A stretch of 64,000 bases of DNA, from the NCBI RefSeq assembly GCF_055900595.2, contig NZ_CM148325.1. One strand, 5' to 3'. A program made the translations under genes and the position numbers. The notes below the pieces were generated by a model, which ran no database searches, was not told the DNA's origin, and worked only from the letters and a program-made list of their open reading frames with translations. Positions 6,901 through 34,610 of the stretch are shown piece by piece. Each line of letters begins with the position of its first letter. The stretch's first letter is position 1.

Positions 6901-7329
6901 GGTTGCCAGGGCGTTCATCGGGTAGATGATAATTGCTTTAACCCCGGCTTGTGACGCGCCCGCGCAGTGGTTGAGCAGCGGGAACATAAAGCATTCTGTT
7001 TTACCGGAGCCGGTACCGGTAGCGACCAGTGTCGGCTGTGGCGCGTCGCATCCCAGACGCTGAAATGCCCGGGCCTGATGCGCGTGCGGCGGGAACGGCA
7101 GCGTCAGATTAGGGAAAAAATTCAGCGGTAAGTCACTTTTACGAAACGGCAACTGGGCGGAAAGGTATGGTCCTTTCAGCAGCGTTTCGGGCTGGGCCAG
7201 AAATTGCTCCAGCATTGAGACATTATCGTTATTCTCACCGTTAAACAGCGGGCTGTTTAGCGGGAACGCCGCCCGTAAAAAGGCGGCAACGCTGTCGGCG
7301 ACCTGCCGACTGACAACGGACGGCAACAT
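988..7329 (-). CDS. Giant SF2 DEAD/DEAH-type helicase with Cys-cluster (Zn-ribbon/DUF1998-like) regions, DruE/DrmA-like, 2113 aa
   Basis: Motif I GTGSGKTE, motif II VVDELHTF, distant motif VI QRIGRAGR; several CxxC pairs (CRDCHATGW, CPICLK...CGHCGH, CSHC...CPKCG, CLGCG); start overlaps upstream stop (TGATG at 7327..7331). Confidence 0.65.
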   Translation of the reverse strand: MLPSVVSRQVADSVAAFLRAAFPLNSPLFNGENNDNVSMLEQFLAQPETLLKGPYLSAQLPFRKSDLPLNFFPNLTLPFPPHAHQARAFQRLGCDAPQPTLVATGTGSGKTECFMFPLLNHCAGASQAGVKAIIIYPMNALATDQASRFAKTIASDPQLHGKVTVGLFVGDSEIEPSKKMSAEKVITCKHTLRESPPDILLTNYKMLDYLLMRPGDQPLWRYNQPGSLRYLVVDELHTFDGAQGSDLACLVRRLKHHIGVDNQRFACVGTSATVGDELGQLLDYAKTIFDQPFTDDAVIREDRYTAAEYLQDYAIAYSQYPGPEVASALDPQSYATPVAYLNGQIPLWFSDSDLQLPDDLESDDGREKRIALGSLLRRHSVMHVLLHDLQGGILSERECLENLQVMLAESADHARRVLQSILALIAQARLEVPETEHDRQKRLQAKKARPVLPFVQLRSQLWLREMRRLVASVAKTPRLVFADDVAVEDREHYLPVIHCRDCHATGWASLRHGQSVQLETDLDGIYRQFFEKGRSIVLAFPDNNEKAVSGAHQKLCPICLKLNRQSSVQCGHCGHTELLQVLIPDMLKERKDELEFANECPYCNSKQGISILGSRAASLSAVMIHQLYGSQFNEHKKLITFSDSVQDAAHRASFFTARTWPLMIRGQIASVLGEKETLPLDAFAARVCQQTRERSPDDAHFAANFIAPNMQWLNDYQTLKNEGKLAENSDLPELVSLRLDWEVYSEFTLRARIGRTLEATGYAVAGVDKERFNPAITALHQQLCEELGDEMSGVSVEQVAHLALGVIWYQRQAGAVMHPTFESYRRDGTTFMMTQKERTSRYMPSIGPKTRKPAYASFEKINGFHRLIGAKSNPSWYQHWINRTLSNGNNLFISSVAETVLRRLFTALKIAGVVKDFDTKGREAWGLVPSALVVSRDVVQLNCSCCREVVRAPADQGWQWRNAPCLSLRCEGRYQEVDNMATWRWENMDIARVQGAEHTGLLSREDREATEKSFYRGNQPWNINLLSATPTLEMGIDVGDLSTVLLCSVPPAQANYLQRIGRAGRKDGNALNITVAEGNPHDQFFFEEPLEMMQGQVQAPGVFLNATAILERQLAAFCMDNWVKTGVPESAICKNVKQMLDELEFGRKSGFPYNLLRYIEQHHAEIAAQFTAIFPDLAAETRQQLLSYLQGAPGQRSLVQRIEEALKLLVEDRKSLRSRIDKLKRSIDKLENAPRDQNFDSDMRELTSERQALMALVNQINNKQTLNFLTDEGLLPNYAFPEAGITLRSVLWRRKEGGEAREYQNTTFEYERPASTALAELAPLNNFYAGGHKVEIEQIDLKVSEPENWRICSHCNYSENIDQTGDQHKYCPKCGTPGWADAGQKTTLLKLRQVYARASARDSQISDESDSREPAFFQRQLLVSFEKEDVSAAYAIEEGEVPFGFEFLSKVTLRDINFGKMADDANELMIAGEAKKRTGFKVCLGCGMVQRPRDHEPRHDLSCKYRTEPEKAKFEDYLYLYRQLESEALRILLPVSSYSNDRVVEASLGAAIQLGLKHYFKGNVDHLKGVVYREPENEGESWRQYLVIYDTVPGGTGSLKELMRTPDNLLKLLELAYQAIVECSCNHDTHKDGCYRCVYAYRDRGRMKYVSRDQARLLLAKILQARDSIRVIDSIKNISLEAMMGSELEKRFISCLQENKNLIVSRSYAHQGAGWIINTRSEPMMSWHLKAQVDLGAKEAVGIPCRPDYVLYPLMQSDAIKPVAIFLDGFAFHKNSVAEDVQKRQAIRDSDNFWVWTVTWADLKEPGLKHVQDVLGLGHNPDMKQPKFYNLFHDTNFAALEASFRERNSFALLLDYLADPGGRTQLWQRMAAAHAWVWLDVKKSQDAGTKQKYAYEMQENAPAWRLAELLPDEPFVFGGLLDSCNSSQQFIELASVLPQQAIKPTTSVAQMRSWLRLHICFDDRYTQDDGYEAGLNGFWRLVNLLQFLPDMTFTSRKAVHLPQESVDVKVTATPEAVPETDESWAEIIEFGLLSAEEIALLQSHSLSAPTLGYELQNDEGEIIAEADLAWPSQKWALIIDNQEFIPLFTTRGWHVAFGPIDEITLQHLSGGDK

Positions 7330-10300
7330 CAGGCGCTCTCCTTATCTTGTGCAAAGAACGCCCAGGCCACTTTGTAATCGTCTTCGCGATCCGGCTTGAT
7401 AAACGGAGCCTGCCAGGTGACGGTACGGCGCTCGCCTTCGTCGCTGCGGGTATAGTCATCAAAGGTGACGCTGACGGTACCGGTTTGCAGATGTTTGACA
7501 TCATCCCAGCCGATAGCCTGATCGGTGCAGTCACCGCCGGTCCAGTCCGGGCTGTCGACGTTAAAGACAAAGCCGTTTTTCAGGTCAGCTTTACGCGCAG
7601 TGCGAGGCAAGCCAACGCCCACCAGCCCTTTGCTTGGGGTAAAGATAATGCGACCGTTTTGATCGTACCAGGTATCCGCTTCGTACTGGCGCATCACCGG
7701 GAACTGAACGCGATAAATGGTAAGCAGTTCTTCGAGGGTTAACCCTAGCGCCTGCGCCACCAGTACGTCGATTTCCACCAGCGCCTGACGACGACTGTAG
7801 TCAGAGCGTAAGGCGCAGTTACGCTGCCACTCTGGGGTCAGATTGGTGAAGAAATCCTGGGGAAGCGGCGGGAGATCGCGGCTCCAGCGCTGGGTGTTGA
7901 AGTCTGGGGTGTAGCAGGATTGCCAGAGATCAGCGTAATCTTTCGTTAACACATTCAAAGCTAATGCTCTTGAGTTTGCACTCATTAACTCAACATAAGG
8001 GAAGCCACGCAATGTTGATTCATAAACATCCGCCCGCCCTGTTGTTTTCAAATAAAAATCAGCCACTATTGAATGGCAAAATGCAGAGAAACTTAGCAGG
8101 TTTATTGGCTCTCTAAATGTTGTTGAGAGTACAGGGTGTATATGAGCAACGTGCTTTGGAACTATGCTGGATATCATCGAGCGTTCTGATGATGCCCCAA
8201 ACATTCTTCGATTAACAAAACGATAATAGTCCGTCACCTTCCTCGGCTCGTCTTCATCCTGCTCTTTCCACGAAACCCGTGGGGTGCGCTTTGCATACTC
8301 CTGTGCATCACAGGCTGGAATATAGTTAGTGCGCGGCAAATAGTCGTCGGGCAGAGTTAGCAATTCTAGGTTATCGTATGCTTTATTCGTGTCACAAACC
8401 GCTCTAGGCGTATTGTAGAAAGGATTGCCAACAAAAAAATGAGGGCCAGACAAAACCCATTGTGATGCTTCTTCCGGGAACTGTGTATGTCGCTCAATTG
8501 TACCATCGCTTTGCTGATTAGTTTCATGCCACATTTCTAGAGAATAATATTGCCCCTGCAAATCACCTAATCGCCTAGGTTGTTTCGCAAACTTTTCAAG
8601 TACTGCAACCAATTGAGTAGCATGTAACGCAGGAAGACGGGCTTCATGTGCTGTAGTGCCAGCACTATCATAGAGACGCGAGAAAAGACCTAATTGCTTT
8701 AAATTTACATGCAAGACTCGATCGAAATGTCCCTGAAAATTCCATTTAACCTTTATTTTACCATCAATTTCAGTTTCTTCTTTTATCCCCGGAACAATGC
8801 CTTCCCCTTTATGTTCAAAACACGCATCAATAGTTTGAGGAATAAATAAATTTGCTATATTTGAGAATGCCACTATCTGAGAATAGGGGCCATACACATT
8901 AATGCTAAATAATGTCTGGTTATGCACCTCAGTGAATAATTTCGTTTCATTAATAAACTGAAAATGCGCCCTAAGCCTCGGATATACCGACGCACGCAGC
9001 TGCCCGCCTTTTGGGTCATCATAAATCCCTTCCGGGTGCAGGAACCCTGCCACGCCTTTCTCTGCCCCCAGACGCCAGGCCTGCGGCAGGAAGCATTTAT
9101 ACAAGTTGGTCTGCACCCCGCGCAGTACCGGGTAGTTCTGCTGCGCATTGAGGAAGTTTTGCATCCCTTCACAGCCTTCATACTCGCTGCGCCAGGCCGC
9201 TTCCAGCGCCGGGATCTGGTTAAAGGTATCAATACGCAACGTTGCCAGCTTCGATGCACTCAGCTTACGCAGCACAAATTCCGGCTCGTAATCACCCAGC
9301 ACGCCCGCTTCCTGCCATTCCACTTTCAGCCACGGCGGGTTTCCGAGCATCAGGTCAAAACCGCCACGCTCGGCAAACAAGTCGCAGAACTCCAGATCCC
9401 AGTGGAAGAAACGGTGCTGCTTTCTCAGGGCATCGACAATCGCCAGACGCGGCAAATGACGGAACAACACCTCGGTTTTCAGACGACCAGCAACGGAAAA
9501 CAGCGAAGACTCTTCTCGCAGCAGGCCGTCTTCGGCAAACAGATCGCCAGTGGTGTGCTCCGCAACTTCAGTGACTTTTTCCGTGATTACAATCCCGTCG
9601 AGCAGGGTTTCAATCTCAAACAACCAGGTGCCGCGATCCGGTAACTCATCGGCTTTGTCGATCGGCCAGAACCACAGCGCGCACCAGTAGTCCATCACCC
9701 AACGCAGCTTCTGGTAGGCGCTGTTATCTTCAAGACGACCGCTAAAGGTTTCATCTTTACTGCTCAGCGAAGAACGCGTCTGCTCGCTGTTTTCTGCCGG
9801 CCACACCGGGTAGCTGTCGGCGGTTTTCAGACGTTCTGCTTTAAGTTGCTGGCGATAGGTGTTCCACAGAGCTTCCACCTTTTCGCTGATACGCTGCACA
9901 TCAGCAATCTCATGCCCGGCAAAGCTTTTAATAAACTCTTTGCGCCAGCTGTCCAGGGCTTTGAAGTCATCCGGATAACGCTGCTTAACAGTTTTATCGC
10001 TGTAGTTAGCCATACCGCCGTCGGGCAGCAGGAAGTGAAAAATCTGCGTCTCTTCACGCGGCGTGTTCATCGCCAGTTCGACCGGCTCGCTGTTAAGCCA
10101 GCTCGGATCTTTGGCTTTTTTGTAGGTCAGTTCACTCTTGTTGAACACCTGACGGCGCGCGCCCACCAGTGAGTTACCGCAGTGCAGCTGGTAACCAAAC
10201 CACGGTACAAAGGCATCGCCACTGATGGCGTTCAACCACAGCGACACTTCCGCCAGTTCCACCGCCACCGGGTTTAAGTCCACGCCGAAAACGTTGTTGT

Positions 10301-12251
10301 CGGCAATGTACATTTTCACCCGCTGTAACTCCTGGGTGTAACGATCCTGCGGAATACGGCGACCTTCCGCCTGCTGCTTGTGGAACAGATACGCTTCCGC
10401 CAGCTGGTTGATGGCTTCGTTAAGGAACGCCGCGCTGCCCATCGCCGGTTCGCACACGGTGAGGTTTAAGATGGCATCAGCTTTGGCGTGCGGATCGCTA
10501 ATGGGATCAATCTGCTCCTTAAACAGTTCTTTCAGGGCATATTTAACCAGTGAGCGGGTCAGCACTTCCGGGGTGTAATAAGAGGCAGATTTCTCACGGT
10601 CGCGCCCGGCCATACGGTAGATAAAACTGCCTTTGCGGTGAATGCGCAGACTGCCGTCTTTCTCGTAGACCTTCTCGTCTTCGTGGTATTTGCCAATCTC
10701 ATCCTTACTGACGAAGTAACCCGTCTCCAGCTCGTTAAACTCTTCCCCGGCTTTCTTCACCTCGTAGAGATCTTCGCTGGCGAAGAATCCGCGATAGGAA
10801 AGCAGCGCCTCATACACCGCACCTAACTGGTTGATACCCAACTGGCGATAAGAAATACGTCCGCGGCGGTTAAAGCGCCCTTTGCCCGGGCGGCTTAACG
10901 ACATCGCCTGGATAATCTGTTGCAGGGTTTCGTTACGGAATACCACGCGGTTAAGAATGCGGGTGTTGTTGGCATCGAAAAGATGACTTTCCAGACGCGG
11001 GACGCTGAACTGATGACTATGGATGGTGATCCGGTCGCCGCTCTCCAGGTCACTCTGTATTTTCACGCCGCCGTTGTAGCCTTCGCGCACCAGTTTAAAC
11101 AGCATATTCAGGCTGTCGTGGAAGTAGCGCCCGTTGCGATCTTCTTCGCTGGTCAGCGGGATCATCTCCAGATCGCGCAACGTTTCCAGGCTGTAACCTT
11201 GCAGATAGGTTTTGGCGGTCATTGGCGCATAACCCAGCTCCGGGCGCGCTTCAATGTAGAACAGGAACAGCAGGCGGTACATGTAACGCAGACATTCGCG
11301 GCTCAGTTCATCCGGGTCCACCGCACGGTTACCGGTATAGTTTGCCAGGCCACGGTCGATCAGATAATGCATCGCTTCGTTGCCCAGCAGCTCAATACTT
11401 TCGCGCAGGGCATATTTCAGATCTTCCGAAACACCAAACGCATGTTTGTGCGAATTGTCATCCAGCGAGTCAAGATAAGGTGCCCCACTGCCCGGCAGCA
11501 GCGAATCTTTATGTAGCAACACTGCCGTCGCTTTCAGCGTATCCGTTTCACGACGACTTAAAATCTCTTCAAAATCAAAACGTAGCAGACGGTTTTGCGC
11601 CCACTTAGTACGGTCCAACAACAATAGCTGACGGTTACCGAGCAGCAGCACAAAACGCGGCGGTTCATTTTGAGTGAAGACCGCCGTAGAGAGCAGATCC
11701 TGCCAGCTGCGATATTCACCGTTGGCTTTTTTGCGCAGGCTGTCGCGCTTATGTTTGTCGGTATCCGCCGGGAATTGCGCGGTCAGTAAAGAGAGCGCCA
11801 GCGGATCCAGCGTTCCTTCTTCCTGATCGTGTGCTTCAACAATCCACAGCCACGGGCTACCGTCAGTGCTGTTGTAACGCGCCAGTACCGGCAGTGGTGT
11901 ATCGTCATCCAGCATTTGGATCTGCGGCGTAATTTCGTAGCCCAGCGCCTTTAACAATGGCTGCCAGCGATTACGTTGATCGGCCAGACGCTGCGGGATC
12001 TGACGCTGTTTTTCGTGCTCGGCAAGTTTGCGGAAAAACTCAGTCGCCAGACTGTTAAACTGGTTCCACGGAGCGCGGTATCCCGGCTCTACGTCTTTGC
12101 CCTGTTCACGAGCGGCACGCTCCGCTTCACGCGCTGCATTTTCCTGGGCTATCCAGGGTTCCAGCACATCGCGGATATCACTGGTGAATACCTCACCCAA
12201 ATAGTGGTTAGAGTAAAATTCGTTTTCGTTATTAATACCGACCAGCGCCAT
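7329..12251 (-). CDS. Large N6-adenine DNA methyltransferase (Eco57I/type IIG-like gamma class), 1640 aa
   Basis: AdoMet motif I-like VCEPAMGSAAFLNEA; catalytic-type motif GNPPWLK; HCGNSLVG motif; long N- and C-terminal extensions; start 2 nt after upstream stop. Confidence 0.65.
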   Translation of the reverse strand: MALVGINNENEFYSNHYLGEVFTSDIRDVLEPWIAQENAAREAERAAREQGKDVEPGYRAPWNQFNSLATEFFRKLAEHEKQRQIPQRLADQRNRWQPLLKALGYEITPQIQMLDDDTPLPVLARYNSTDGSPWLWIVEAHDQEEGTLDPLALSLLTAQFPADTDKHKRDSLRKKANGEYRSWQDLLSTAVFTQNEPPRFVLLLGNRQLLLLDRTKWAQNRLLRFDFEEILSRRETDTLKATAVLLHKDSLLPGSGAPYLDSLDDNSHKHAFGVSEDLKYALRESIELLGNEAMHYLIDRGLANYTGNRAVDPDELSRECLRYMYRLLFLFYIEARPELGYAPMTAKTYLQGYSLETLRDLEMIPLTSEEDRNGRYFHDSLNMLFKLVREGYNGGVKIQSDLESGDRITIHSHQFSVPRLESHLFDANNTRILNRVVFRNETLQQIIQAMSLSRPGKGRFNRRGRISYRQLGINQLGAVYEALLSYRGFFASEDLYEVKKAGEEFNELETGYFVSKDEIGKYHEDEKVYEKDGSLRIHRKGSFIYRMAGRDREKSASYYTPEVLTRSLVKYALKELFKEQIDPISDPHAKADAILNLTVCEPAMGSAAFLNEAINQLAEAYLFHKQQAEGRRIPQDRYTQELQRVKMYIADNNVFGVDLNPVAVELAEVSLWLNAISGDAFVPWFGYQLHCGNSLVGARRQVFNKSELTYKKAKDPSWLNSEPVELAMNTPREETQIFHFLLPDGGMANYSDKTVKQRYPDDFKALDSWRKEFIKSFAGHEIADVQRISEKVEALWNTYRQQLKAERLKTADSYPVWPAENSEQTRSSLSSKDETFSGRLEDNSAYQKLRWVMDYWCALWFWPIDKADELPDRGTWLFEIETLLDGIVITEKVTEVAEHTTGDLFAEDGLLREESSLFSVAGRLKTEVLFRHLPRLAIVDALRKQHRFFHWDLEFCDLFAERGGFDLMLGNPPWLKVEWQEAGVLGDYEPEFVLRKLSASKLATLRIDTFNQIPALEAAWRSEYEGCEGMQNFLNAQQNYPVLRGVQTNLYKCFLPQAWRLGAEKGVAGFLHPEGIYDDPKGGQLRASVYPRLRAHFQFINETKLFTEVHNQTLFSINVYGPYSQIVAFSNIANLFIPQTIDACFEHKGEGIVPGIKEETEIDGKIKVKWNFQGHFDRVLHVNLKQLGLFSRLYDSAGTTAHEARLPALHATQLVAVLEKFAKQPRRLGDLQGQYYSLEMWHETNQQSDGTIERHTQFPEEASQWVLSGPHFFVGNPFYNTPRAVCDTNKAYDNLELLTLPDDYLPRTNYIPACDAQEYAKRTPRVSWKEQDEDEPRKVTDYYRFVNRRMFGASSERSMISSIVPKHVAHIHPVLSTTFREPINLLSFSAFCHSIVADFYLKTTGRADVYESTLRGFPYVELMSANSRALALNVLTKDYADLWQSCYTPDFNTQRWSRDLPPLPQDFFTNLTPEWQRNCALRSDYSRRQALVEIDVLVAQALGLTLEELLTIYRVQFPVMRQYEADTWYDQNGRIIFTPSKGLVGVGLPRTARKADLKNGFVFNVDSPDWTGGDCTDQAIGWDDVKHLQTGTVSVTFDDYTRSDEGERRTVTWQAPFIKPDREDDYKVAWAFFAQDKESA

Positions 12252-12253
12252 GA

Positions 12254-15112
12254 TTAACCCTCCGCTCCGGTGATAACAGCAATTACCTGAATGTAGGGTT
12301 CTTTTTCAGTCGTCATGGTGTCCTCAATCCATTCGATATAGCTGTCAAAATTGTGTTCGATTTCGCGTTGTCTCTGCTCTTTACGGCTCTGCTTAACTGA
12401 CAATTGCTGTTTGTTATCGGCAAAATCCAGCTCAAGTTGGCTCAACTGCCGCCCACGCAAAACGTCCAGCTTTTGCAGATGCTCATTCAGTTGCTGGTTA
12501 ATGTGCGTTTCAAACGCATTCCGATCATGGATGAATACCTCCCGGGCATGAGCAATAGCCGCTTCCAGTAAATCCTGCTGGCGCTGGTGATTACGATCTT
12601 TACCGCCGCTGTTAGTCAGCTTGTTACTCAACTGCGGATGACGTTGTAAAAACTCAGCGAATGGCTGACTGCCGATTAGCGATTCACGGTTAAAGCTCAC
12701 CACTATCCACGGGTTCACCATCGGATGTGATTTACGGTTCGGGAATAACCCGGAAAGAATGAAGTGATCTTCATCGGGTTCAAGCAGGTATGGCAGACGG
12801 ATAACCGGTGCCTGATGACGACCAAAAGCCGAAGAGATTTTATCGTCCAGCCACTGCACTACCGGGTTGATTTGCCAGAGATACTGCACATCGGGCCAGG
12901 CATGTTGCTCACCGCGAGCGCGTGCAATCGCGTCGGTGATGACGGTTTTATCCTGACTTAAAAAGAGCTGCCAGTTCTCCGGGGCGATTTCAGGCGGTAG
13001 CTGGTTGAAGCGGCGGCGTAACTCCTCCGGTGCCACCAGCGACAAGGTATTATCAGGCAAGGTTTCATACTGGATAGTTTGACCACTGGCTTTCAGGTAA
13101 CCCAATGCTCTTTCACAGTACGCCTGTTCGCTGGCAAACAAGCTGGTGTCTGTTTCGATGACCATTGAGGCATCGCTGGAAACCGCACTGCATATTTCGC
13201 CAAACAGATCGTGTTCGGCGCTTTCCGAGACGTTGCTGTTCAGCAGTTGATCAAACAGGCTGGCACCATCATCCTGCATCATGAACTCTGCAACCTGCTC
13301 TTCTTCCTCTTCCTGGGTAAATTTGCCGGTAAACTCCGAACTGTCCCCAATGTTCTTCTGCGCCTGTTCGTCTTTGTTGATCAACACTTCCAGTACGCGC
13401 ATATCGCCATTGATCTGCGGTTCGCTGGCCTCGGTAAGCAGATAGCGGATTTGAGGCTGATGTTTTTGCCCATAGCGGTCAATACGCCCGTTACGTTGCT
13501 GGAATACCATCAACGACCACGGAATATCAAAGTGAATCATTTTGTGGCTAAGGTGATGCAGGTTGATCCCTTCAGATGCCACATCCGAACAAACCAGAAG
13601 ACGCAACGGCGACTGCGTTTTACCAAAGGCTTCTACGGTTTCCATCAACACCGTATCGCCCTGATCGCCGCGCAGCGTGGCGATCTGATCATCTTTCAAT
13701 TTCAGATCCGCTCGCAGTTGCTGTTCGAGGAACTCCAGCGTTTTAATGCTTTCGGTGAAGATCACCAGGCGATCTTCCGTGTTATTGGCTTTCCAGGCGA
13801 GGTCTTTTCGGATGGTGTCGAGCAGCAACTGGTATTTGCTAAACTGGCTGGCATCAATGTTATTCAGCGCCAACAGCAATGACTCCAGTTCGTTGATCTG
13901 GCTCTGGCTATTATGATCTTTACGGCTCTCAAGACGCTTCAGACGATTAGCCACTACGCTGGCACACGCCATCGGGCTGGAAAATAGCGCTTTTTCGAGG
14001 GTTATCTTGAACAGACGACCTTTGTTAGACTGGGCCTGTTCATCGTCATCATCACGGAACTGACTCTCAACCAGGCGACGGTATGCTTCTTCTTCGGCAC
14101 CGGATGCCAGGCGAGTCAGTTTGACAATATTGCGCTCGGGGAACTCGCCAGACATCTGATCTTTCACGTCTTTTTTGAAGCGACGGACAACCAGATTTTT
14201 ATCGGCAAAGTCGGCGTATTCATACTCTTTCGGGTTGGCGATCGCCGTCGGGTCAAGCATGTTCATCAGGCTGGCAAAACTTTCAGCTTTACCATCATGC
14301 GGCGTTGCTGAAAGCATAATCAGCGTATCGCTGCGCCCGGCGAGCAGTTTTGCCAGTTTACTGCGTAACGAACTGGTTCCACGTTCTGCGACGTTATGGG
14401 CCTCATCAATGACAATAATATCCCACCAGGCATTTTCCAGATGGTGACGATATTCAATATCTTGTTTCAGCGTATCGATGGAGATAATGGTCTTGTCAAA
14501 ATAGTGGAACGGGTTGTGGTTGGTAGGGATGCGGTTACGCACTTTTTGTAAACCAGCAGAATCCAGGCGGGTCAATGGGATCGCAAAACGGCTCCAGAAC
14601 TCCTTCTGGAATTGTGTCAGCATCGATTTAACCGCCAGAACCAGAATACGTTTTCCGCGCCCACGACGGATCAGTTCCGAAACCAGAATACCCGCTTCCA
14701 GCGTTTTACCCAGACCGACAGCGTCGGCAATGAGTATCCGCTGACGCGGTTGTGCCAGCGCCATCCGCGTAGGATCGAGCTGAAACGGCATGGAATCCAT
14801 CGCCGCCAGATGTCCAAAATGGACTTTACTGTCTGTCGGTACGCGTTGGCGTAACTGACTTTCAATATACAACTGTGCCGCCTGATAATTGGCGGATTCA
14901 TCTTCCACCAAATGCGTTTTTGCGGGATCAAGGATCTCTACTTTTTGTTCCAGTTTGGTCAGAAATAACCCTTCTTTACCGCGCACAAGCTCTGAAATAC
15001 CATCGCAGGTCAGCAAATACCCACCATCACCACTGTCATCCGCCCGGCGAATACGCCATTCGGCATCACGAATAACCACCCGCATACCAGGTGCATAATT
15101 TTGCTTATTCAT
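12254..15112 (-). CDS. SNF2-family (SF2) helicase/ATPase, 952 aa
   Basis: Walker A ADAVGLGKT, DEAH box IVIDEAHNV, helicase-C region with QQRNGRIDRYGQ; first gene of the coupled operon. Confidence 0.7.
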   Translation of the reverse strand: MNKQNYAPGMRVVIRDAEWRIRRADDSGDGGYLLTCDGISELVRGKEGLFLTKLEQKVEILDPAKTHLVEDESANYQAAQLYIESQLRQRVPTDSKVHFGHLAAMDSMPFQLDPTRMALAQPRQRILIADAVGLGKTLEAGILVSELIRRGRGKRILVLAVKSMLTQFQKEFWSRFAIPLTRLDSAGLQKVRNRIPTNHNPFHYFDKTIISIDTLKQDIEYRHHLENAWWDIIVIDEAHNVAERGTSSLRSKLAKLLAGRSDTLIMLSATPHDGKAESFASLMNMLDPTAIANPKEYEYADFADKNLVVRRFKKDVKDQMSGEFPERNIVKLTRLASGAEEEAYRRLVESQFRDDDDEQAQSNKGRLFKITLEKALFSSPMACASVVANRLKRLESRKDHNSQSQINELESLLLALNNIDASQFSKYQLLLDTIRKDLAWKANNTEDRLVIFTESIKTLEFLEQQLRADLKLKDDQIATLRGDQGDTVLMETVEAFGKTQSPLRLLVCSDVASEGINLHHLSHKMIHFDIPWSLMVFQQRNGRIDRYGQKHQPQIRYLLTEASEPQINGDMRVLEVLINKDEQAQKNIGDSSEFTGKFTQEEEEEQVAEFMMQDDGASLFDQLLNSNVSESAEHDLFGEICSAVSSDASMVIETDTSLFASEQAYCERALGYLKASGQTIQYETLPDNTLSLVAPEELRRRFNQLPPEIAPENWQLFLSQDKTVITDAIARARGEQHAWPDVQYLWQINPVVQWLDDKISSAFGRHQAPVIRLPYLLEPDEDHFILSGLFPNRKSHPMVNPWIVVSFNRESLIGSQPFAEFLQRHPQLSNKLTNSGGKDRNHQRQQDLLEAAIAHAREVFIHDRNAFETHINQQLNEHLQKLDVLRGRQLSQLELDFADNKQQLSVKQSRKEQRQREIEHNFDSYIEWIEDTMTTEKEPYIQVIAVITGAEG

Positions 15113-15335: not shown

Positions 15336-18300
15336 TTATCCAGCGATAACATAACTCCTAAGGTCATTACCCGGGGCAACAGCTCGCGCTCGCGTGTTTG
15401 CCAGCCGTTCAACTTGCTGCGGTACTCGCAGAGCAAAATCAAAGAAGGTGTCTTCAATACAGCGCCAGTAGCTAAGCCCCATGTCGAGCAGGACATAATG
15501 CTGACTGCCATCGCTGAAGGTGACTGTCAGTTCTCGTCCATGCTCCGTACTCTGGTTATCCCCCGTTAACCAGCTAATTGCTCCCGGCCACGCAGGCCCC
15601 AGATATCCTTCTTCAAGTAAAGTGGTCACAACCTGCTGACGATCTTCCTCATTAAGCCACGCGTTATAGAGAGCGTTGTGTTGGCGAGAGTTGTAATCCA
15701 ATTTTTTGACGCAAACAGTGAGGCTGGCGCGTTCCGCCATTCCCTGTTCAACCAGCTCGGTTAAGATTTCACCTAACATACGCGCCGTGAATGGGCTATT
15801 AAGATAACGATCGCTGTACTCAACATGCGTTATCTCTTTGTGGCGGGTAAATGCCTGCTTCCAGCCAGCGTGCTGTTGCGTGACTAACGACCAGAAACGC
15901 GAACCAAACCCTTCCAGCGGCCCGTCCAGTTGCTCGCAGAGGTTGATGCGCACCGCCCCGGTGGGTAAGGCGGGCAGTAAATCTTCTGCACTTAAGGTCT
16001 GACCCGAGAAGGTTTTTCCGGACGTTCCTTTAAGTGTCACTACTGGTGAGGACGCACTTTGTCCCCATAATTCACCAGGTGCAACGGTAGCGCTGTCGTC
16101 TGCGGCCCACTGTTGGCTTTGCCCTTCGCGAGTCACCTGCGCAAGCCAGCGCCCCTTTCCTTGCATGAGTTGCGCAGTGGCAATGGATTTCACTTGTAAG
16201 CGTCCTCCCGGCATCGCCGCCAACGCGGAAAGCTGATGTCTGGAGCTATCAGTTAAGTTTTCCAGCGGCGTGGCCACCAGCAACTCAACATTCCCACCGG
16301 AGGAGGCAAACTGGAGCAACTCTTTAAATAATGGCCATTGGGCAAAGTCCCACTGTTCCTGCGGCCCCGCAAGAACCAGCGAGCAGGAGTCATAAATCTC
16401 GCTGTTCAGGCATTGCGCAATACGTAAACTCAGAGGGTTAGTTTCAACCCGGCTACCATCGACGAAGTACTGATATTCTGGCGCGAGGTTAAGTCGCTGC
16501 AACCGTACATTGGTAAGCAGGGTTAATGCATGGTGACGATCTAATCTGTTGACATAATGCTGACTGTCGTAGCTGAGCAAGCAGTGGTGACAGAATTTAT
16601 CGCAACTGCAATCGAGCAATTTTCTGGCGTAATTAAAGACATCAGCCCAATGGTCGATCAATTGCACTGCATAACCTGCACCACCCGCATTATTGTCGTA
16701 AATGAAGATGGAATATCCGGTATAGCCATTGATATCGCGCGCTTGCTGCGTCGTCACGCCCAGCTCAGTATTTTCGATACCCAATTTATGCGCTAACCCT
16801 TCACGCAAAGCGACCGCAAGGGAACGCGCGGCAACCTCATCACGGATCAACAGGCCATTATCATCATTGAGTTGCAGCTCAACCATATCTGTACGACTGC
16901 TATACCCCAACCACAGATCTTTATGCACATGACCGTGGCACAATTTATTGCTCCCCTGACGATCGTTACTGCCCCCTCGCAACAGGTAATGCGTATTTTC
17001 CCGCTCTGGGTTCTTTAGATTTTCAGGGGTACGCTGGGGTTGAGTTTGAGATTCTGCCCGACCACATGAGAGGCAAATTGCGTAGCCGTGCCCAAATTCC
17101 CCTTCACTGAAGTGGAACAATTCCCCACTATGGCTAAAACGGTAACGTCCTAGCCCAGCATCGGGTAAAGAAACCCACACCGAAGACGGTACAAGAACAC
17201 GTGGATCTTTCCAGGGAAGTTGTGCAGGCATGGATACATCATTATGTGCCTGATAACGAATATCTGTCGCAAAACCAACAGGCTGTAAATAACGCTTCAC
17301 ATCAAGTTGCTGTATATCCGCTTTGCAGTGACTACATTCGACAGGATGGGTAGCACTGGTTGCCCCCGCACCACATTTACGGCAATGCCAGAACCACGGA
17401 ATATGATGATCGCCTGACAGCTCCTGCCCGCTGGCAAGTACCTTGCCAAGCATAATGCCCGAGGAACGATATACTTTTCCGCCCAATACCACATCTGCAC
17501 CAGGCGCATACTCGCGTAATGCTGTAGGTAGATCACGGCAGGGCAATTTTTCAATACGACGAGAAAAGCTTTCTCCCCCTTCATTAGGGTCAGCCTGAGT
17601 AGCTTTTATTGCGCGACGTTTTTCCAGCTCATCTGCCGTCAGATAATTGAAATTGACGACACCAACCGGGAAACCATGCCCTGGCAGGAACGCTTCACTA
17701 ATGAGTTTAGAAAACAGATATGCACCGCGATAATCACGAAGCTGATAAGCGATGGCTTTACCTGCTGGCGTTTCTTCCCACGCGCTGTTATCCGCTTTCA
17801 ACGCTTCGATATTTTCCAACAGTATCGCAAGTTGGCTTCTCCAGCGGATATCAACCTGCTGCATCATTGCTTGTGTGCGGGTCAAGAGCTGGGTTGCCGT
17901 CAATGACATCAGGACGGTTCCCTGAGTAAGGCGTTTAAGTTTATCCGCCAGCTGATCGGCCTGGTTATTTAACCAATGGAGAAAACGAAGACACTGGCTC
18001 TCATCACCTTCAAAGAACCATTTGCAACTCAGTTTTGTCGCATCAGGAACTTCAGCTCGTAAAAACAGACCTAAAACCAGGGCATTAACATGTCGTTGAA
18101 CAATACTGCTGCTCCCAAAACGAACCCGTGGCGCACTGGCAGTAGTGTTGAACGCCCAGAGGGGGTCTTTGAATACCTCCATTCCATGCGCCGTGTTTTT
18201 ACATAACGTAATGGCAGCAGATGCACTCTCTCCACGTCGACCCGCGCGGCCTGCACGCTGCAAATAATTTGCCGGAGCTGGAGGAACGTTGTTCATTGCC

Positions 18301-21300
18301 ACCAAACTCATACCACCAATGTCCACCCCCATCTCCATGGTCGTGGAGCAGTTCAGCACATTAACTTTGCCTGACTTAAATTGTTTTTCATTAAACTGGT
18401 TCTGCTCAGGCGTTCTCTGCGCAGAGTGTTCCTCCAGACGATACCAGCTATCTTTCAGGGCCAGTCGGTCGCTGCGAGTAGACCATAATCCTTCCTCGCG
18501 GGCATGTTGAATCAGCGCATTACTTTCCAGCCACTCCAGGCGTTCTTCTCGGGCGATTTCTCCACCACCAGACAAACGCCAGTGACGTACAGGAAGCTCA
18601 GGCATTTCAATCAACACTGCTTTTTCAGGTGCAATTTCTTTGCTACCCGGCAAATACGGAGAGTATCCCAGCAACGTGACGTCTAACGCACGTCGAGTAT
18701 AGGGGCAACGCCACACTTGCTTTGGACTGTAAAATTCAGCCTGTTGTTTAATATCCAGCTGATAACCCGACTCAAACTGACGTAAGCAGGGTCGAATTGC
18801 ATCCCAGACCTCAATCATTAAGTGGTTAACTAACGATTTCCAGTGAGCCTGCTCAGGTTGTATTGCCGGAAAGACTGCAATTAATAGCTTAATGACCCGG
18901 TTATAATGGCGATCGCGTATTTGTGGCCAAAGTTGATCACGTTTCTGCCCTTTGTTTTTTTTATCTGGACCCTGGAGCATTTTTACCGGGAAACGAGCCC
19001 CCATCCAGCGAGGGTATTGCTCGTTTTCGTAAAAAACGGCACTGTTTTCACGTATAAAGAAATCAAGAGTAATCTTCAATAAATTACGCCATTCCGCTAA
19101 TTGCTTATCGGGATCGGGTAATAATGTCTTCCAGTCCTGCGGGCAGGTTGTAACTTTATCAATAAATGGATAGTGAATGGCTACCAGACCCAGACTTTCG
19201 AGGGTCCAGGCATTTTTAGGGCGGCGACCAAATTCACTGTATAAACAAAAATCTGCAAACTGTTGTTTAGTAAGATCAAGCCCAGACAATTCTTTAAAAC
19301 TGCCTCTCATTCTATCGGCAAGGTCCACACTGCCAACCAGCTGTTCAGACAGTGTTTGCCATGACATGGTTTTCTTCTGCTGATTGCCAGAGTTAGCCTG
19401 GAGTATTTGCATCGCTTCAGCATGATCCGGGCTTAAGGAACTCACCATCGGCTCGATAATTTTAAGTGCCTGAATGTCCGCCGGGCTAAGCTCTTCATTA
19501 GCAACCATCGATTTTTTCAGCGCGTCAATAGAGTTTTTTAAAGGAAGGATAGAAAACTGGGCAATAAAACTCTCTAACAATGCGCAGTGTGCCGGGCTGA
19601 GCTTTGCTGATGGCTCATTAATATTGGCCAACTCCTGGTAGCAAAGAGCTCGCAACGTCGCTTTATCGGCATCCTGCTGTAAGCGGGCAGAAATGCGGGC
19701 AGTGCCCTGACGTGAATCCGTAAAGGTGAGCAGACGTCGACCATTAAACGGTCCTAACTGCTCTTCTCTTGTCTGCGGTAATGGTGAAAACTCCAGCAGA
19801 GTAGGAATAATTTCATTTAAAAAAAAGGGCGCGCCAAGTCGAAGCGGACGGAATAAAGGATTATTTTTTCGTTGGGTGTCACCACAGCAAACACAAGCAA
19901 AGGAATTATTACGTCCCTCACCTCGAGATTCCGGTCTTAACAGGTTTATTTCATAGTGCTTTTGCGCTTCACTATCAATTTTCCCCGCCGTCGTTTCTTC
20001 CAGTGAAATGATATATTTTTCACCATCGCTCGCAATCAGACGATCAAATTGAGAGTTATTGTCTAATTCGTCGTTGTCTTCATCTTCAGAATAAACATCT
20101 ACATCAAGAGCAAACTCATCCACTTCGGCAGCGGCGGGTTGCGCTACCAACCAGTTCGTTCCATCACCGCGCATCTCCTCTTTGGCAGACAAATAAGCTG
20201 AACCACACCCGGAGCAACGTAAAACTTCAAATACCGGCGCACCACAGTCACAATATTGGCGCTGCTCAAACCATACCTGACCAAATGGCCAGTCACTCTG
20301 ATTTAATTCATGTGCTTTATGTGAGCATTGTTTGTTTGAACATGCCCATAGACCCGCCAGTGTTCTGATAAATCCATGCATACGTAATGGCGTAAAAGCC
20401 AGTTCACCTTCTCGCGATCTTGCCATTAGATCGAGGAGTTGCAGTAGCTCACGGTGATTAATATCTGGCCAGGTTCTTCTGGCAACATTGAGCAACTCAC
20501 TCAAACGTACTGCCTGCCGTCCGGGATGAGTTAACGCCTGACGCAATTGCTGGGCCACACGGTAATGACAAAGCTGTTGGTAAAGATCCTGAGGGCTCAG
20601 AGATTTAAGAGAAGTTAAAGATGTGGGGTATTCATGACGAATCAGCGACTCCGATACCCGCGGTATTTGTCGATAGCCGCGAACCACTTTGACATCACGT
20701 TCTGTAACGCCCGCAAGATCAGCGACAAATTTAGCAAGCTCCTTATTACCTTCAGGAGAGTCTTCACCAATAGTGGCAGAGGTCGCGATAATCTGCACAG
20801 GTTTATCTGTGCCAGGTCCAACATTGAAAGCCTGCATAACACGACGTAAAAGCAGCGCTAACTCAGCAGCCTGAGAACCAATATAACTATGGGCTTCATC
20901 CAGGACGATATACTTTAACATCCCCTGAGACTTTTCGATGATTGGGGCATCTTTACGACGAATCAGCATATATTCCAGCATGGTGGTATTCGTCACCATG
21001 ATGGAAGGTGGTGCTTCGTAAATGGCTTCCCGACTCAAAGCTTGTTCAGGTACTTTCAACTGATCTTCCTGAACTTCGTATTTGGTATGCCGGGTTTCGC
21101 CATTATATAGCGCGAAGCGTATTTTCCCCTTAAATCCGCGCGTCCATTCGCGAAGCCGCTCCTGTTGGCTGTTAATTAATGCATTTAACGGATACAAGAA
21201 AATAGCTTGTGTCCCTGTTAGTGACTGACGGGTCGATTTTTGCTGACGAATAAGATCTTCCAGGACCGGTACCATAAAGCATTCTGTTTTCCCGGATCCC

Positions 21301-30250: not shown

Positions 30251-31180
30251 TTGAACAGCAGAAAATTTGCGAGCATGATCGCAATTATTTCACTGCCAGG
30301 GATATCAATGGCTTCCAGTAAATCGCTACAGCAGGCAATTGCCAATATAAAAATCTGGCACAAGGGTGAACAGCGCGCGCCGCATAAGCCATTGTTATTG
30401 CTATACGTATTAGCGGGATACCTGAATGGACATCCGCGCCTTTTCGATTATGGCTCGGAAATCTACGAACCTCTGCACAGTTTACTGGAACGTTTTGGGC
30501 CACAGCGTTCACAGTACCGACCTGATATGCCGTTCTGGCGATTACAAGGCGACGGATTCTGGCAATTACACAATGCCGAGCTTTGCTCAACAGCAGGGAG
30601 CAGCCGACAACCGCCAGTGAAGGAACTGAACGAATACCACGTTGCAGGCGGTTTCGATGAACAGCACTACGCCCTGGTAACCGGCAATAAAAAACTCATC
30701 AATACTCTGGCGCAACAGATACTCGAAGCGCACTTCACCGAGAGTATTCAGGAAGAAATTGCTGACGAGCTGGGTTTTGATCTCCAGCAAATCCGTAAAC
30801 AGCGCGACCCGTTATTTCGCAAAAATGTATTACGCGCTTATAAATACCAGTGCGCGATATGTGGCTTTAATATGCGCCACGATGACACCACCGTCGCGTT
30901 GGAAGCGGCGCATATAAAATGGAAACAGCACGGCGGTCCTTGTGAAATTCCTAATGGCCTGGCGCTTTGCGCAATTCACCATAAAGCCTTTGATAAAGGA
31001 TCGATTGGCCTGGATGAAAATATGCGGGTACTGGTCTCGGATGCGGTAAACGGCGGAGGGATCGTTGAGAAACTATTCTGGGATTTTGACGGGAAAACTA
31101 TTGCGTTGCCGCAGGTGCGTAAAAATTACCCTTATGAGGGGTTTGTGGAGTGGCATCGGAAAGAGGTTTTTAGGGGGTGA
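30251..31180 (+). CDS. HNH endonuclease, putative restriction-type; true start may be an internal Met
   Basis: HNH motif CAICGFN...EAAHIKWKQHGG...LCAIHHKAFD at the C-terminus; divergent from the neighbouring HNH gene. Confidence 0.5.
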   Translation: MNSRKFASMIAIISLPGISMASSKSLQQAIANIKIWHKGEQRAPHKPLLLLYVLAGYLNGHPRLFDYGSEIYEPLHSLLERFGPQRSQYRPDMPFWRLQGDGFWQLHNAELCSTAGSSRQPPVKELNEYHVAGGFDEQHYALVTGNKKLINTLAQQILEAHFTESIQEEIADELGFDLQQIRKQRDPLFRKNVLRAYKYQCAICGFNMRHDDTTVALEAAHIKWKQHGGPCEIPNGLALCAIHHKAFDKGSIGLDENMRVLVSDAVNGGGIVEKLFWDFDGKTIALPQVRKNYPYEGFVEWHRKEVFRG

Positions 31181-31798
31181 GTTTGATAACTATCGCAGTA
31201 TGTTCAATATTGCTGACATAATCAGTGCAGGATCTTGCCGCTAGTTTACAACCCGCCTTCGATAGCGGCGCAAAACGAGTTCTGTTGCCGATATCCTCGG
31301 CTATGGATATTCCAACAGTTCCGGCAGGTTTACCAAGTTTCAGGTAAGTTTTTACTCAGAACCGGTTGATGCGGTTTATAAGGCGCTGGATGTGAATTAA
31401 CACATTCCTCAGCTTATTTACAAAAGGATTATTCCCATTTGATATAATATCAGTGCCAATTTACTTTTTTCAATGGAATATATCTCGGCTAAATAACAAT
31501 AAAACTTATCGCTAATGGATTAAATAAACAATTTTCTAATTTATTTCACCACCTTTGATATAGAAATTGATGGTGTTGTCGCTGCCATTGCTTATGGTGA
31601 TGATAAAATCCACGTTTCTGGATCGGTGCGTAGAAAATCATCACTACCTTGATATTTTGATGCGATATGATCATACCGTTCCGTAGTACCAATTTCAACT
31701 TCAGGCTAAACCCCAACATTAATAAAATTAGAGTTATTCACTGATTATATTATCAATAATATAATCAGTGAATAACATGGAGTATATAATAAATTGCT

Positions 31799-33844
31799 CT
31801 AATCATTTCCCTTACGAATATATGGGCCAAAAGCCCAAGAATCATAATAAGGGTGATGGACTAATTTTTCATTAAATCGAACACTATAAGTTAATTTTTT
31901 TATATTTTTACGTACAGCATTAATACTGGGCAAAGAGGAAAGATAATCTATAAACTTATCGATAGTGATTTTCCCTTCGCAACACTCAAACCCATCAATG
32001 ATATTTTTCGCCATTTTTCCATTTTCATTTGTTTGATATATCACTCCAGGTATTCGTTGAAAAAAACTAGATAATGCATATTTGTCCGCTACATATGTAT
32101 CATCCACATGATATTTCCCACCGAGCATAGTTGTAGTAACAATAAGCTTATACACACCTTTGGGTTGCCATGTTGATGGTAGTTCGAATTCTTTAATGAT
32201 CACATCAAGATGATTAAGATAATGTTCAGAAATTCGATTTATTTGTTGAAAATAAGAACGCATAAATTTATTATTATGATCATGTATTAATGAGCTATCT
32301 CCAACGATGTTACACACTTGCTGATAGTACTTACCATAATATATTGGTTGACCATTTGATTTTAGTTCTGTAAAAATCAAACAATCATCCAGGAGAATCA
32401 CGCAATCGCACTGATAATTAGCATGAGCATCAATTGGAGAAGCTTTAATCCCCGCATCACGAACTTGTTTTATAAATTGTTGCTCATGAAATCGCCCTTT
32501 ACTTGCTTGAGAAATTTTTTTGGAACCAAATAATGACATTAGAGAGCGAGTCACTGAGCTATTTGCTATTAATGCAGGCATTAAGCATAAACCGTCCATA
32601 CAGGGAATAAATGGGCAATCATTAAGATCATGTGATTTTGAATTGAAGGTAAAATAATCTATCAGTTTTTTTGCTGCATCTGCTGCAATCCCCTTACGTT
32701 GAAAGAATGATAACCAACTCTCACGGTTTTTTATGACCAGCCAGCGATCCAACTGTAGGGGTATAGGTTTTGTCGATGAAAATCTTTTGCTCATTTCTTC
32801 TTTAGATAACTCGACTAAACATTGATAAGCGTGCACCCAATTAAATAATGATATATTCCCATATTCTTCATGAAGGTCATCAGGAGACATATTTTCCAAC
32901 TCGCTTAAATGAAATGAGCTAAAAACGCCATCAGAATTTAAGTAAGATGGCATATGATCCTTTACCCAACTATTTAGATGAAAATGTTTGTTACTAAATT
33001 CATGAACTTCGCTATATAGATGTGACGCTCTCATCATTAGTCTATTTCTTGCAATCTCATAATCTCGGTATAAACAAAAACTATCAACCTCAAGAGAGTA
33101 AATGTTATTATCCAATTTTGTAAATACTGCACTACTTAGTCTGAAAAAGTCTCTTACTCTGCTTAATGAGTCAAAAACATTCCACTCATTAAGGTACCCT
33201 CCCATTGAAAGCAAGGTTTGTTTATTCACACAAGAAGTTAGTTTCAATGGCCCATGAGTCCGTAAATAAGAAAATATTCTTCCGGTGTAATTGGCTACCT
33301 CATCAAATGCCCTATCGATAACTCGAAAATATTCGATATCAGGTTCAGCATGAATATTAATATTTTCAGTAACGATAAATAATGGAAAAATCCTCTTCAT
33401 TTTTTTAGGATCATTGACCACAACCAAGGATGATAATGATGATAAAAACATCTCACAAAACATGATGAGATTAAGTATTAATGCATGTGATTTTTTTGTA
33501 TTTTTACGCCAAATACCAGCACATTTTGCAGCCGCAAAGAAAGAATTATTTATATCATGCATAATTTTACATTGACTCTCGAACTCAGAGATTAGTTCAA
33601 TGTTATCAGGAAATGAGTTTACTAGCTCATTAATACATTTTTTGAATGTATTGTTATACTCAACTTCAGTCTGAACTGAAAATCTATTATAATAGATGGA
33701 AGATATTCTCAGCACATCCAAGGCGATATCTATACTAATATCATCTCTTTTTATGTACTCACAAAAAAAAAGAACAAAACTGTTTCGGGTCGTTAGCAAG
33801 ATTACTAATTCTAGTGGTATCATAAACTTTTTCCATTTTTCCAT
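31799..33844 (-). CDS. Hypothetical protein, 681 aa, AT-rich orphan
   Basis: Long uninterrupted ORF, K/N/I/F-rich composition typical of low-GC foreign DNA; no motif recognised. Confidence 0.45.
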   Translation of the reverse strand: MEKWKKFMIPLELVILLTTRNSFVLFFCEYIKRDDISIDIALDVLRISSIYYNRFSVQTEVEYNNTFKKCINELVNSFPDNIELISEFESQCKIMHDINNSFFAAAKCAGIWRKNTKKSHALILNLIMFCEMFLSSLSSLVVVNDPKKMKRIFPLFIVTENINIHAEPDIEYFRVIDRAFDEVANYTGRIFSYLRTHGPLKLTSCVNKQTLLSMGGYLNEWNVFDSLSRVRDFFRLSSAVFTKLDNNIYSLEVDSFCLYRDYEIARNRLMMRASHLYSEVHEFSNKHFHLNSWVKDHMPSYLNSDGVFSSFHLSELENMSPDDLHEEYGNISLFNWVHAYQCLVELSKEEMSKRFSSTKPIPLQLDRWLVIKNRESWLSFFQRKGIAADAAKKLIDYFTFNSKSHDLNDCPFIPCMDGLCLMPALIANSSVTRSLMSLFGSKKISQASKGRFHEQQFIKQVRDAGIKASPIDAHANYQCDCVILLDDCLIFTELKSNGQPIYYGKYYQQVCNIVGDSSLIHDHNNKFMRSYFQQINRISEHYLNHLDVIIKEFELPSTWQPKGVYKLIVTTTMLGGKYHVDDTYVADKYALSSFFQRIPGVIYQTNENGKMAKNIIDGFECCEGKITIDKFIDYLSSLPSINAVRKNIKKLTYSVRFNEKLVHHPYYDSWAFGPYIRKGND

Positions 33845-34525
33845 ACATCCTATTGTCTAAATTACTATAAAACTAGCCACTTAACTAATAATTATAAATT
33901 TCATCTTTTACACCTTGCATTTTTATAACCAATGAAATCTACAACAAGCAACTGATGGATAATCCGATATTGGTCGCATTTAATGGCATGGTAGCAAAGT
34001 TTTCATCACATACCTCCTTTGCACCAGAATAAACGCCAGAGACCTGAAATTGCGAGTACACTACAGAAATTGTACTGCCGGTCCCATCAGCATAAAACCA
34101 TAGTTACACAGGTAATCATCATTATTCACCAAGATAATAAATATTATTCGGTAGAATAGCGTTCTCAGGTGGTCAGTAAAATTGTCTTCAACAAGATGTC
34201 TGCGCATCTCGTCTGCTAGCCCTACATAACTGCTCTCGACCGAAACTATTTATTGAATGTTCACCAAGGTGGGCGTGGAGACAAAATGACGTCTTTTGAT
34301 ATTAGCTACCTGAGCCACATGGTCAAAACGTTCAAGTAGCATAGCGAAACCACCCTGCCCACGTAATGTGGACGATGCAGCTCCCAGCCAGAGCAAACTT
34401 GGGACCATCGACTACAAAATGAAGAATACTGAACTGCTTTTCTGGCAGGCCTATATACTGCACGGATATGGGTGATTTCAGACACAAAAAAAGCCGCTCT
34501 TAAGCGACTCGATTTGCATACGGTG

Positions 34526-34610
34526 TGGTGCCGAAGGCCGGACTCGAACCGGCACGTATTTCTACGGTTGATTTTGAATCAACTGCGTCTACCGATTTCG
34601 CCACTTCGGC
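34526..34610 (-). tRNA. leuX: tRNA-Leu (anticodon CAA)
   Basis: Reverse complement reads GCCGAAGTGGCGAAATCGGTAGACGCAGTTGATTCAAAATCAACCGTAGAAATACGTGCCGGTTCGAGTCCGGCCTTCGGCACCA, 85 nt with CCA end and CAA anticodon in the loop. Confidence 0.9.

Follow-up and report, generated by a model that had tools for sequence, protein, structure and literature searches.

A gene beside leuX in Escherichia coli belongs to a widespread, uncharacterised family of NERD-type nucleases with a possible role in anti-phage defence

The open reading frame (ORF) at positions 31799-33844 of the window, i.e., the whole stretch of 64,000 nucleotides analysed here, is a real gene of a widespread, uncharacterised protein family of about 650-700 residues, in which a variable helical domain is combined with a NERD-type nuclease. 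With moderate confidence, the gene is taken to encode a single-polypeptide, Mg2+-dependent PD-(D/E)xK (NERD-type) nuclease that serves as a standalone anti-phage defence protein. We infer this immune function from a conserved nuclease site, a nucleic-acid-binding-type module, two fast-evolving domains, the lack of a partner gene, and the genomic contexts. The effector chemistry is conventional, the case for a defence role of the family is circumstantial, and the copy in the window may be non-functional. A standalone defence protein in a defence island had already been suggested in the initial annotation, and this is still the best-supported reading; its premise of an orphan without recognisable motif was wrong, because the ORF belongs to a broad NERD-domain family.

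The locus in the window

The earlier description of an AT-rich gene between an HNH pair and leuX agrees with the present analysis in coordinates, GC content, HNH genes, and tRNA. The GC content of the ORF is 0.30-0.35, versus about 0.45-0.55 on both flanks. The features of the locus are as follows.

28904-29513: frameshifted remnant of nanM (N-acetylneuraminate epimerase, kelch repeats)
29521-31180: divergent HNH gene pair, encoding a 216-aa HNH protein and a 309-aa PT-DNA-binding HNH restriction endonuclease (SBD-HNH type)
31225-31683, plus strand: decayed 3' end of brxL and start of an END-nuclease/PLD-like gene, 84% identity to TW10828 and O111 08-4377
31733-31776, minus strand: perfect 21-nt inverted repeat, 22 nt past the stop codon of the ORF, then a T-rich tail
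31799-33844, minus strand: NERD-family ORF, 681 codons, uninterrupted; T9 frameshift allele
33759-33848, minus strand: 29-aa stub MYGKMEKVYDTTRISNLANDPKQFCSFFL followed by a stop; the family-conserved N-terminus, ended by the frameshift in the window copy
33763-33771, minus strand: poly-T run, recurrent frameshift site at codons about 24-26; T9 in the window, T8 in the in-frame majority allele
33845-34525, minus strand: upstream region of 681 bp, restricted to genomes with the gene
34526-34610, minus strand: leuX, tRNA-Leu(CAA), an integration hotspot, with its own terminator at 34491-34510

With 438 bits, the 309-aa HNH protein strongly matches the model NF045808 of NCBIfam ('phosphorothioated DNA-binding restriction endonuclease'), and leuX was the sole match when the flanks were scanned with Rfam. 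The spacers on both sides had been called non-coding, which needs to be qualified: the downstream one (31181-31798, 618 bp) is not featureless and contains the decayed brxL/END-nuclease junction, and the upstream one is a block co-inherited with the gene. Within the ORF, a 100-bp segment (window 32636-32735, query positions 838-937) is 86% identical to unannotated DNA in a few E. coli plasmids and chromosomes. Plasmid and other matches at '80-90% identity' in E. coli were rejected as copies of the gene, as they represent just this fragment.

A broadly distributed protein family

Of 5426 complete E. coli genomes, 359 carry the gene with an identity of at least 99%, and its product is always annotated as 'hypothetical protein'. 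A relative with 75% identity was found in Salmonella, and identities are 37-56% for relatives in Izhakiella, Xenorhabdus, Pectobacterium, and Pantoea. An exhaustive phmmer search yielded 224 representative clusters at E<=1e-3, mostly of 600-700 aa and aligned nearly end to end, and a second homologue search with alignment A2 returned the same 95 close relatives. At the structural level, Foldseek retrieved 349 AFDB50 matches at E<=1e-3. Those that rank highest superpose over their full length (TM 0.65-0.97) and come from Bacillus, Paenibacillus, Listeria, Streptococcus, Enterococcus, Legionella, Agrobacterium, Paracidovorax, and one planctomycete, and nearly all of them bear the UniProt name 'NERD domain-containing protein'. 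These sequence and structural relatives contradict the designation of the gene as an orphan. The query itself has no match in Pfam, NCBIfam, PHROGs, or the PDB sequences, and a search of 50,697 phage genomes yielded no homologue. PADLOC gave a marginal, sub-threshold 17-bit match of residues 465-514, on the nuclease core, to the candidate model PDC-M29B; no discussion of PDC-M29 was found in the searchable literature.

An AlphaFold2 model built with the family alignment (mean pLDDT 92.6, pTM 0.91) consists of four parts, all encoded on the minus strand.

32780-33844, minus strand: N-terminal domain, residues 1-355, all-helical with one beta-hairpin (240-252)
32510-32767, minus strand: winged-helix-like module, residues 360-445, H-b-H-H-b-b, with a near-invariant DLxDCP (D406, D409, P411)
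32045-32506, minus strand: NERD-type PD-(D/E)xK core, residues 447-600, alpha-beta-beta-beta-alpha...beta, then QP...R..Y after ExK
31829-32044, minus strand: C-terminal domain, residues 601-672, small alpha/beta, with a conserved Y-x-G-x-I-T-x-x-K-L...PPQI block

Both the catalytic signature and the restriction-endonuclease-like fold of the PD-(D/E)xK/NERD superfamily are present. In the model, G450 and E454 lie on helix 1, D480 on strand 2, and E493-x-K495 on strand 3, which gives the canonical signature E454...D480...E493-x-K495; the earlier statement that no motif was recognisable is thus not confirmed. Across 79 members with about 20% identity to the query, P411, G450, D480, E493, and K495 are the sole invariant residues, and 90% or more of the members share E454, D406, D409, Q534, R537, D587, and R597. 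The local motif FKGxxFE ... YECD ... (L/F)xxECK ... QPxxxRxxY corresponds to the classical PD-(D/E)xK arrangement. At E<=1e-3, Pfam NERD (PF08378) matches 4 of these 79 members, a number that rises to 13 at E<=0.1, and the query has no match to it even at E<=10; weaker Pfam matches among the members are Card1_endonuc and Mrr_cat. The same scan found nothing over the first ~445 or the last ~75 residues. The family is unannotated, with no Pfam family over about 75% of its length. Profile searches of the PDB with alignments A1 and A2 gave no meaningful match. The closest solved folds are all DNA nucleases.

No other part of the family diverges as much as the N-terminal domain (14-19% identity), which has no match in Pfam or the PDB; the most remote phmmer matches align only from about residue 300 on. 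The N-terminal domain is proposed to serve in recognition/regulation. For the C-terminal domain, an S4-like identity, prompted by an 'ITIDKFI' block, was considered but gained no support: matches in the PDB-sequence profile search with the C-terminal alignment A4 were at chance level, uS4 appeared at E=1.4 on a different segment, and Pfam S4 has no match in the 79 members.

Comparison with known nucleases and defence systems

One-protein defence nucleases that join a sensor to a PD-(D/E)xK core are a known kind, and the N-terminal domain of the present family is unlike any characterised one. The closest solved structure is that of Upx (Gao_Upx; SeUpx, PDB 9wuf), with which the NERD-family protein has in common a divergent C-terminal PD-(D/E)xK core of the Upx CTD type. 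In Upx, the nuclease toxicity is triggered by a phage terminase (or gp16), and both defence and terminase-induced toxicity need E1176 of the ExK motif. However, the Upx family was defined by its N-terminal sensor region in PSI-BLAST-based family building (Evans et al., methods), and this region (NTD + MD, about 715 aa) is absent from the query, which totals 681 aa. PADLOC found no Upx match for the query or for 10 members, nor was 9wuf matched in PDB sequence or profile searches. The protein is therefore not an Upx member, as it lacks the defining NTD and MD and any detectable sequence similarity; at most, it 'works like the Upx CTD'.

ZwsA (Zowangsin) of P. aeruginosa is a standalone protein of about 82 kDa with helical N-terminal domains, a NERD domain, and a small C-terminal domain; its catalytic residues are E535/D567/E580/K582, and it cleaves structured RNA of ssRNA phages while sparing host mRNA (bioRxiv 10.64898/2026.04.06.716636). 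Compared by published description alone, ZwsA and the NERD-family protein share a length of about 700 aa, the domain order, and the E...D-x12-E-x-K tetrad, and both genes occur in genomic islands or defence hotspots. In contrast, the ZwsA numbering was found in none of the 150 listed representatives, the lengths before/after the catalytic Lys are 582/about 143 in ZwsA versus 495/186 in the query, and the S4 RNA-binding C-terminus of ZwsA is not supported in the NERD-family protein.

DS-26 ('NERD', WP_054626965.1) is a validated single-gene defence protein of E. coli from the DefensePredictor study (PMC13092281, Tables S6 and S8) and has a remote HHblits link to Upx. It contains a NERD-type PD-(D/E)xK domain like the query but differs from it in its length of 532 aa and its D...D-S-K motif. 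Identity of the two was rejected (BLASTP E>=17; hhalign 20 columns at a probability of 0.2%), and peptide strings of the NERD-family gene are absent from the tables of PMC13092281. DS-26 has no match in the PDB. Unlike FokI-type, type IIS, and END nucleases, the NERD-family protein has no FokI recognition or iEndoIII domain, has a different domain order, and shows no sequence similarity to them. It likewise differs from other PD-(D/E)xK defence effectors (Nhi, Hna, Shedu SduA, Can2/Card1, and McrC), as it lacks helicase, CARF, and DUF4263 modules as well as a partner protein. As opposed to classical type II/IIS restriction-modification, no adjacent cognate methyltransferase was found in the E. 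coli, Izhakiella, Pantoea, Bacillus, or plasmid loci, and the methyltransferases encoded in the vicinity are components of type I or IIG systems in their own right.

Defence-cargo turnover at the leuX site of E. coli

The island in the window is O-island 172 (OI-172) of EHEC, with the following genes in 988-28694.

988-7329: ARMADA II, DruE/YprA-like helicase-nuclease
7329-12251: ARMADA II, type IIG MTase-REase-like
12254-15112: ARMADA II, DrmD-like SNF2
15336-21659: Druantia III druE (PADLOC DruE3)
21650-25009: Druantia III druH (PADLOC DruH3)
25221-28694: Zorya II zorA2/B2/E, after the RefSeq annotation of the syntenic EC42405 region

PADLOC reported a set of a DrmD-like helicase, a type IIG MTase-REase, and a DruE-like helicase in the island, and this set was equated with armA-C of ARMADA II as described in bioRxiv 10.1101/2025.09.22.677730. 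The sole scope of that preprint is z5894-z5902, and the leuX-proximal genes go unmentioned. According to recent preprints, ARMADA II, Druantia III, and Zorya II act in synergistic defence in EHEC. The armD gene would be expected at the left border of the window or outside it.

TW10828 and O111 08-4377 are strains in which this slot at leuX holds BREX-1 and AbiE, together with an 'anti-phage END nuclease'/PLD-like gene and the remnant of an integrase. Since the window carries a relic of the brxL/END junction and other strains carry intact BREX-1/END/AbiE in this slot, the NERD-family gene sits where defence cargo is exchanged. The relic at 31225-31683 is direct evidence of defence-cargo turnover at the leuX site, and the link to a defence island is strong in E. 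coli, where the slot alternates with BREX-1/END/AbiE and adjoins OI-172.

An obligate pairing of the NERD-family gene with the PT-dependent restriction endonuclease was rejected, given that the latter (309 aa) is found in 1705 of the 5426 E. coli genomes at a coverage of at least 80%, versus about 335-359 genomes with the gene. Only a fragment of the gene for the 216-aa HNH protein remains in UTI89. This strain has intact nanC-nanM/nanS beside the same HNH'/PT-REase/NERD module, genes whose place in the window has been taken by the OI-172 block.

Genomic contexts in other lineages

The gene is horizontally scattered. It is monocistronic in every lineage examined, no neighbour is conserved between lineages, and a methyltransferase, NTPase, or antitoxin partner was found in none of them. 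It is flanked by entD and sugar-utilisation genes in Izhakiella, and by flagellar genes and an Hcp/Ntox44 pair in Pantoea. On a metagenomic contig, it immediately precedes a type I R-M system together with a Lamassu-like pair (Cap4-nuclease/SMC), and on another contig it is cargo of a Tn7-like element, directly after an OLD-TOPRIM/UvrD (Gabija) pair. One homologue resides in an element with integrase, KAP NTPase, and Mrr/PIN genes; further copies are solitary on a Bacillus-type chromosome, at the accessory end of a prophage in a Clostridia genome, and on plasmids of Bacillus, Priestia, and Exiguobacterium. Recognised defence systems are adjacent in 3 of the 11 lineages sampled (including E. 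coli), a sample too small for statistics. The remaining 8 comprise 2 mobile or defence-type contexts (the integrase/KAP/Mrr element and the prophage end) and 6 plasmid or housekeeping ones.

A heritable unit of about 2.8 kb

The 681-bp upstream region was found only in ~337 gene-carrying genomes and presumably holds the promoter/regulatory region; a promoter scan was not above background and gave no confident call. Although UTI89 has a CP4-type island (CbtA/YeeU and others) that separates the gene from leuX, the complete upstream region is retained. Downstream, the 21-nt inverted repeat with its T-rich tail is likely to be the transcription terminator of the gene. As the upstream region is tied to the gene and a palindrome follows the stop codon, the heritable unit is about 2.8 kb, made up of the upstream region, the ORF, and the hairpin. 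Terminal repeats of a transposable unit were not found at the gene.

Recurrent frameshifts in a 5' poly-T tract

The window copy of the NERD-family gene is FRAMESHIFTED, in which the conserved N-terminus is replaced. The majority allele in E. coli (cluster P0024, 3303 member sequences) has 678 aa, begins with MEKVYDTTRISNLANDPKQFCSFFCEY, and starts at an ATG equivalent to window position 33836; this start matches the family-wide N-terminal consensus M..YD...I..LA.....F. In a DNA alignment, the run at 33763-33771 is T9 in the window and T8 in EC42405 (FZN31_RS21065); O145 RM8843 (EW648_RS26015) is another carrier of the in-frame T8 allele. The conserved start in the window therefore reads merely 25-29 codons to a TGA, and the 681-aa frame is kept open solely by an out-of-frame ATG at 33844. 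The window ORF begins with MEKWKKFMIPLELVILLTTRNSFVLFFCEY, its first ~26 residues being non-homologous. The earlier description of a long intact ORF holds insofar as 681 codons are open, but not for the conserved N-terminus. Since this +1 frameshift removes the conserved N-terminal ~26 residues, the window copy may be weakly expressed or inactive.

The tract was surveyed in a spread sample of 60 out of 335 genomes with the segment, indels being implied from match lengths. There is no net indel (T8) in 48 of them, whereas 9 are one base short (T7), 2 have one extra base, and 1 has two; in-frame alleles thus make up about 80% of the E. coli carriers, and frame-disrupting indels about 20%. The T7 group includes the original Sanger record of UTI89. 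An extra G may also occur upstream of the tract, at a distance of about 30 nt: on direct inspection, alleles with an excess of one or two bases were T9 alone, T8 with this G, or T9 with this G. The backgrounds of the T9 window allele and the T8 allele of EC42405 are 3 SNPs apart, those of TUM14697 (T7) and SCU-115 (T9 with extra G) 0 SNPs, and those of UTI89 (T7) and 82.0311 (T8 with extra G) 2 SNPs. The tract indels are therefore recurrent, independent events on at least three near-identical SNP backgrounds. PGAP labels the 82.0311 allele 'frameshifted' and shortens T7 alleles to 587 aa. The variation could reflect a phase-variable switch, continuing decay with recurrent pseudogenisation, or, in some of the assemblies, errors in sequencing the homopolymer. 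Among four E. coli alleles compared, 13 changes are non-synonymous and 6 synonymous, a count that, small as the numbers are, suggests weak recent constraint.

Proposed function and alternative explanations

In the favoured reading of a standalone immune nuclease, the variable N- and C-terminal domains would keep the nuclease inactive, or set its target, until a phage-derived cue appears; this might be an unusual feature of a nucleic acid or, as in the case of Upx, a protein of the phage. With nucleic acid positioned by the winged helix, the NERD core would then cleave phage and/or host DNA. A bolder version is considered quite unlikely, namely that the family forms a new class of single-protein phage sensor-nucleases whose fast-evolving helical N-domain, unlike any solved fold, recognises a conserved phage component, with expression in E. 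coli switched ON/OFF by 5' poly-T slippage (T7/T8/T9).

Other functions were considered as well. The protein might be a modification-dependent (type IV-like) or type IIS-like restriction nuclease, in which a FokI-like core cuts modified or unusual phage DNA that is directly recognised by the winged-helix and helical domains, with neither a protein trigger nor a methyltransferase; this is regarded as rather improbable. That it is an RNA-targeting NERD endonuclease, which like ZwsA would cleave structured RNA of ssRNA phages (MS2/Qbeta-type, F+ hosts), is very unlikely. The D-to-E spacing of 13 and the ExK motif are the same in D480/E493/K495 as in ZwsA, the E-to-D spacing of 32 in ZwsA is close to about 26-35 in the family (a hand count in few members), and the domains are similarly ordered; yet the ZwsA numbering is missing from the listed representatives, the segments around the catalytic Lys differ in length, profile searches of PDB sequences did not support an S4-like C-terminus, and the closest solved folds are DNA nucleases throughout.

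A non-immune role, either as a selfish or mobile-element-associated nuclease (element maintenance, competition) or as a decaying relic in E. coli with a pseudogene in the window, is unlikely but has to be weighed. The frame-disrupting indels in about one fifth of the E. coli carriers, which arose independently in at least three SNP backgrounds, the alleles that are frameshifted or N-terminally truncated according to PGAP, and the 13:6 ratio all point in this direction, as do the many contexts that are plasmid or IS-flanked without recognisable defence genes, or solitary among housekeeping genes. However, most E. coli alleles are in frame, and costly defence genes also often show loss-of-function alleles. 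In favour of a selected function, both the full-length architecture and the catalytic residues have been maintained across Enterobacterales, Bacillota, and Planctomycetes. Moreover, the unit contains no transposase, integrase, or terminal repeats, and no homologue was found in the phage genomes searched.

If the in-frame allele protects, a broadly distributed family would join the one-protein 'sensor + PD-(D/E)xK' immune nucleases (Upx, DS-26, ZwsA, END). The gene is a credible candidate in much-studied strains, beside an island under active study, and could confound or contribute to phage-resistance phenotypes credited to that island. The recurrent 5' homopolymer frameshifts provide natural ON/OFF alleles for weighing cost and benefit. 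If the tract does act as an ON/OFF switch, it would represent a phase-variable innate-immunity gene in E. coli, where, to our knowledge, contingency loci are rare.

Small reading frames next to the gene

In two loci of distant homologues, a small upstream gene directly adjoins the NERD-family gene or overlaps its start, i.e., a 177-aa hypothetical gene in the Priestia pBEH5 locus (L016, 8402-8932) and a 325-aa HTH_17 gene in locus L009 (7020-7997). These genes are not conserved elsewhere and could be lineage-specific regulators. The co-inherited upstream region of the window contains, at 33981-34020 on the minus strand, a near-perfect Shine-Dalgarno sequence, AAGGAGGT, after which come an ATG and an 8-codon mini-ORF (MKTLLPCH, then stop). 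This element lies about 160 nt upstream of the gene start and could be a leader peptide or a relic of a former gene start.
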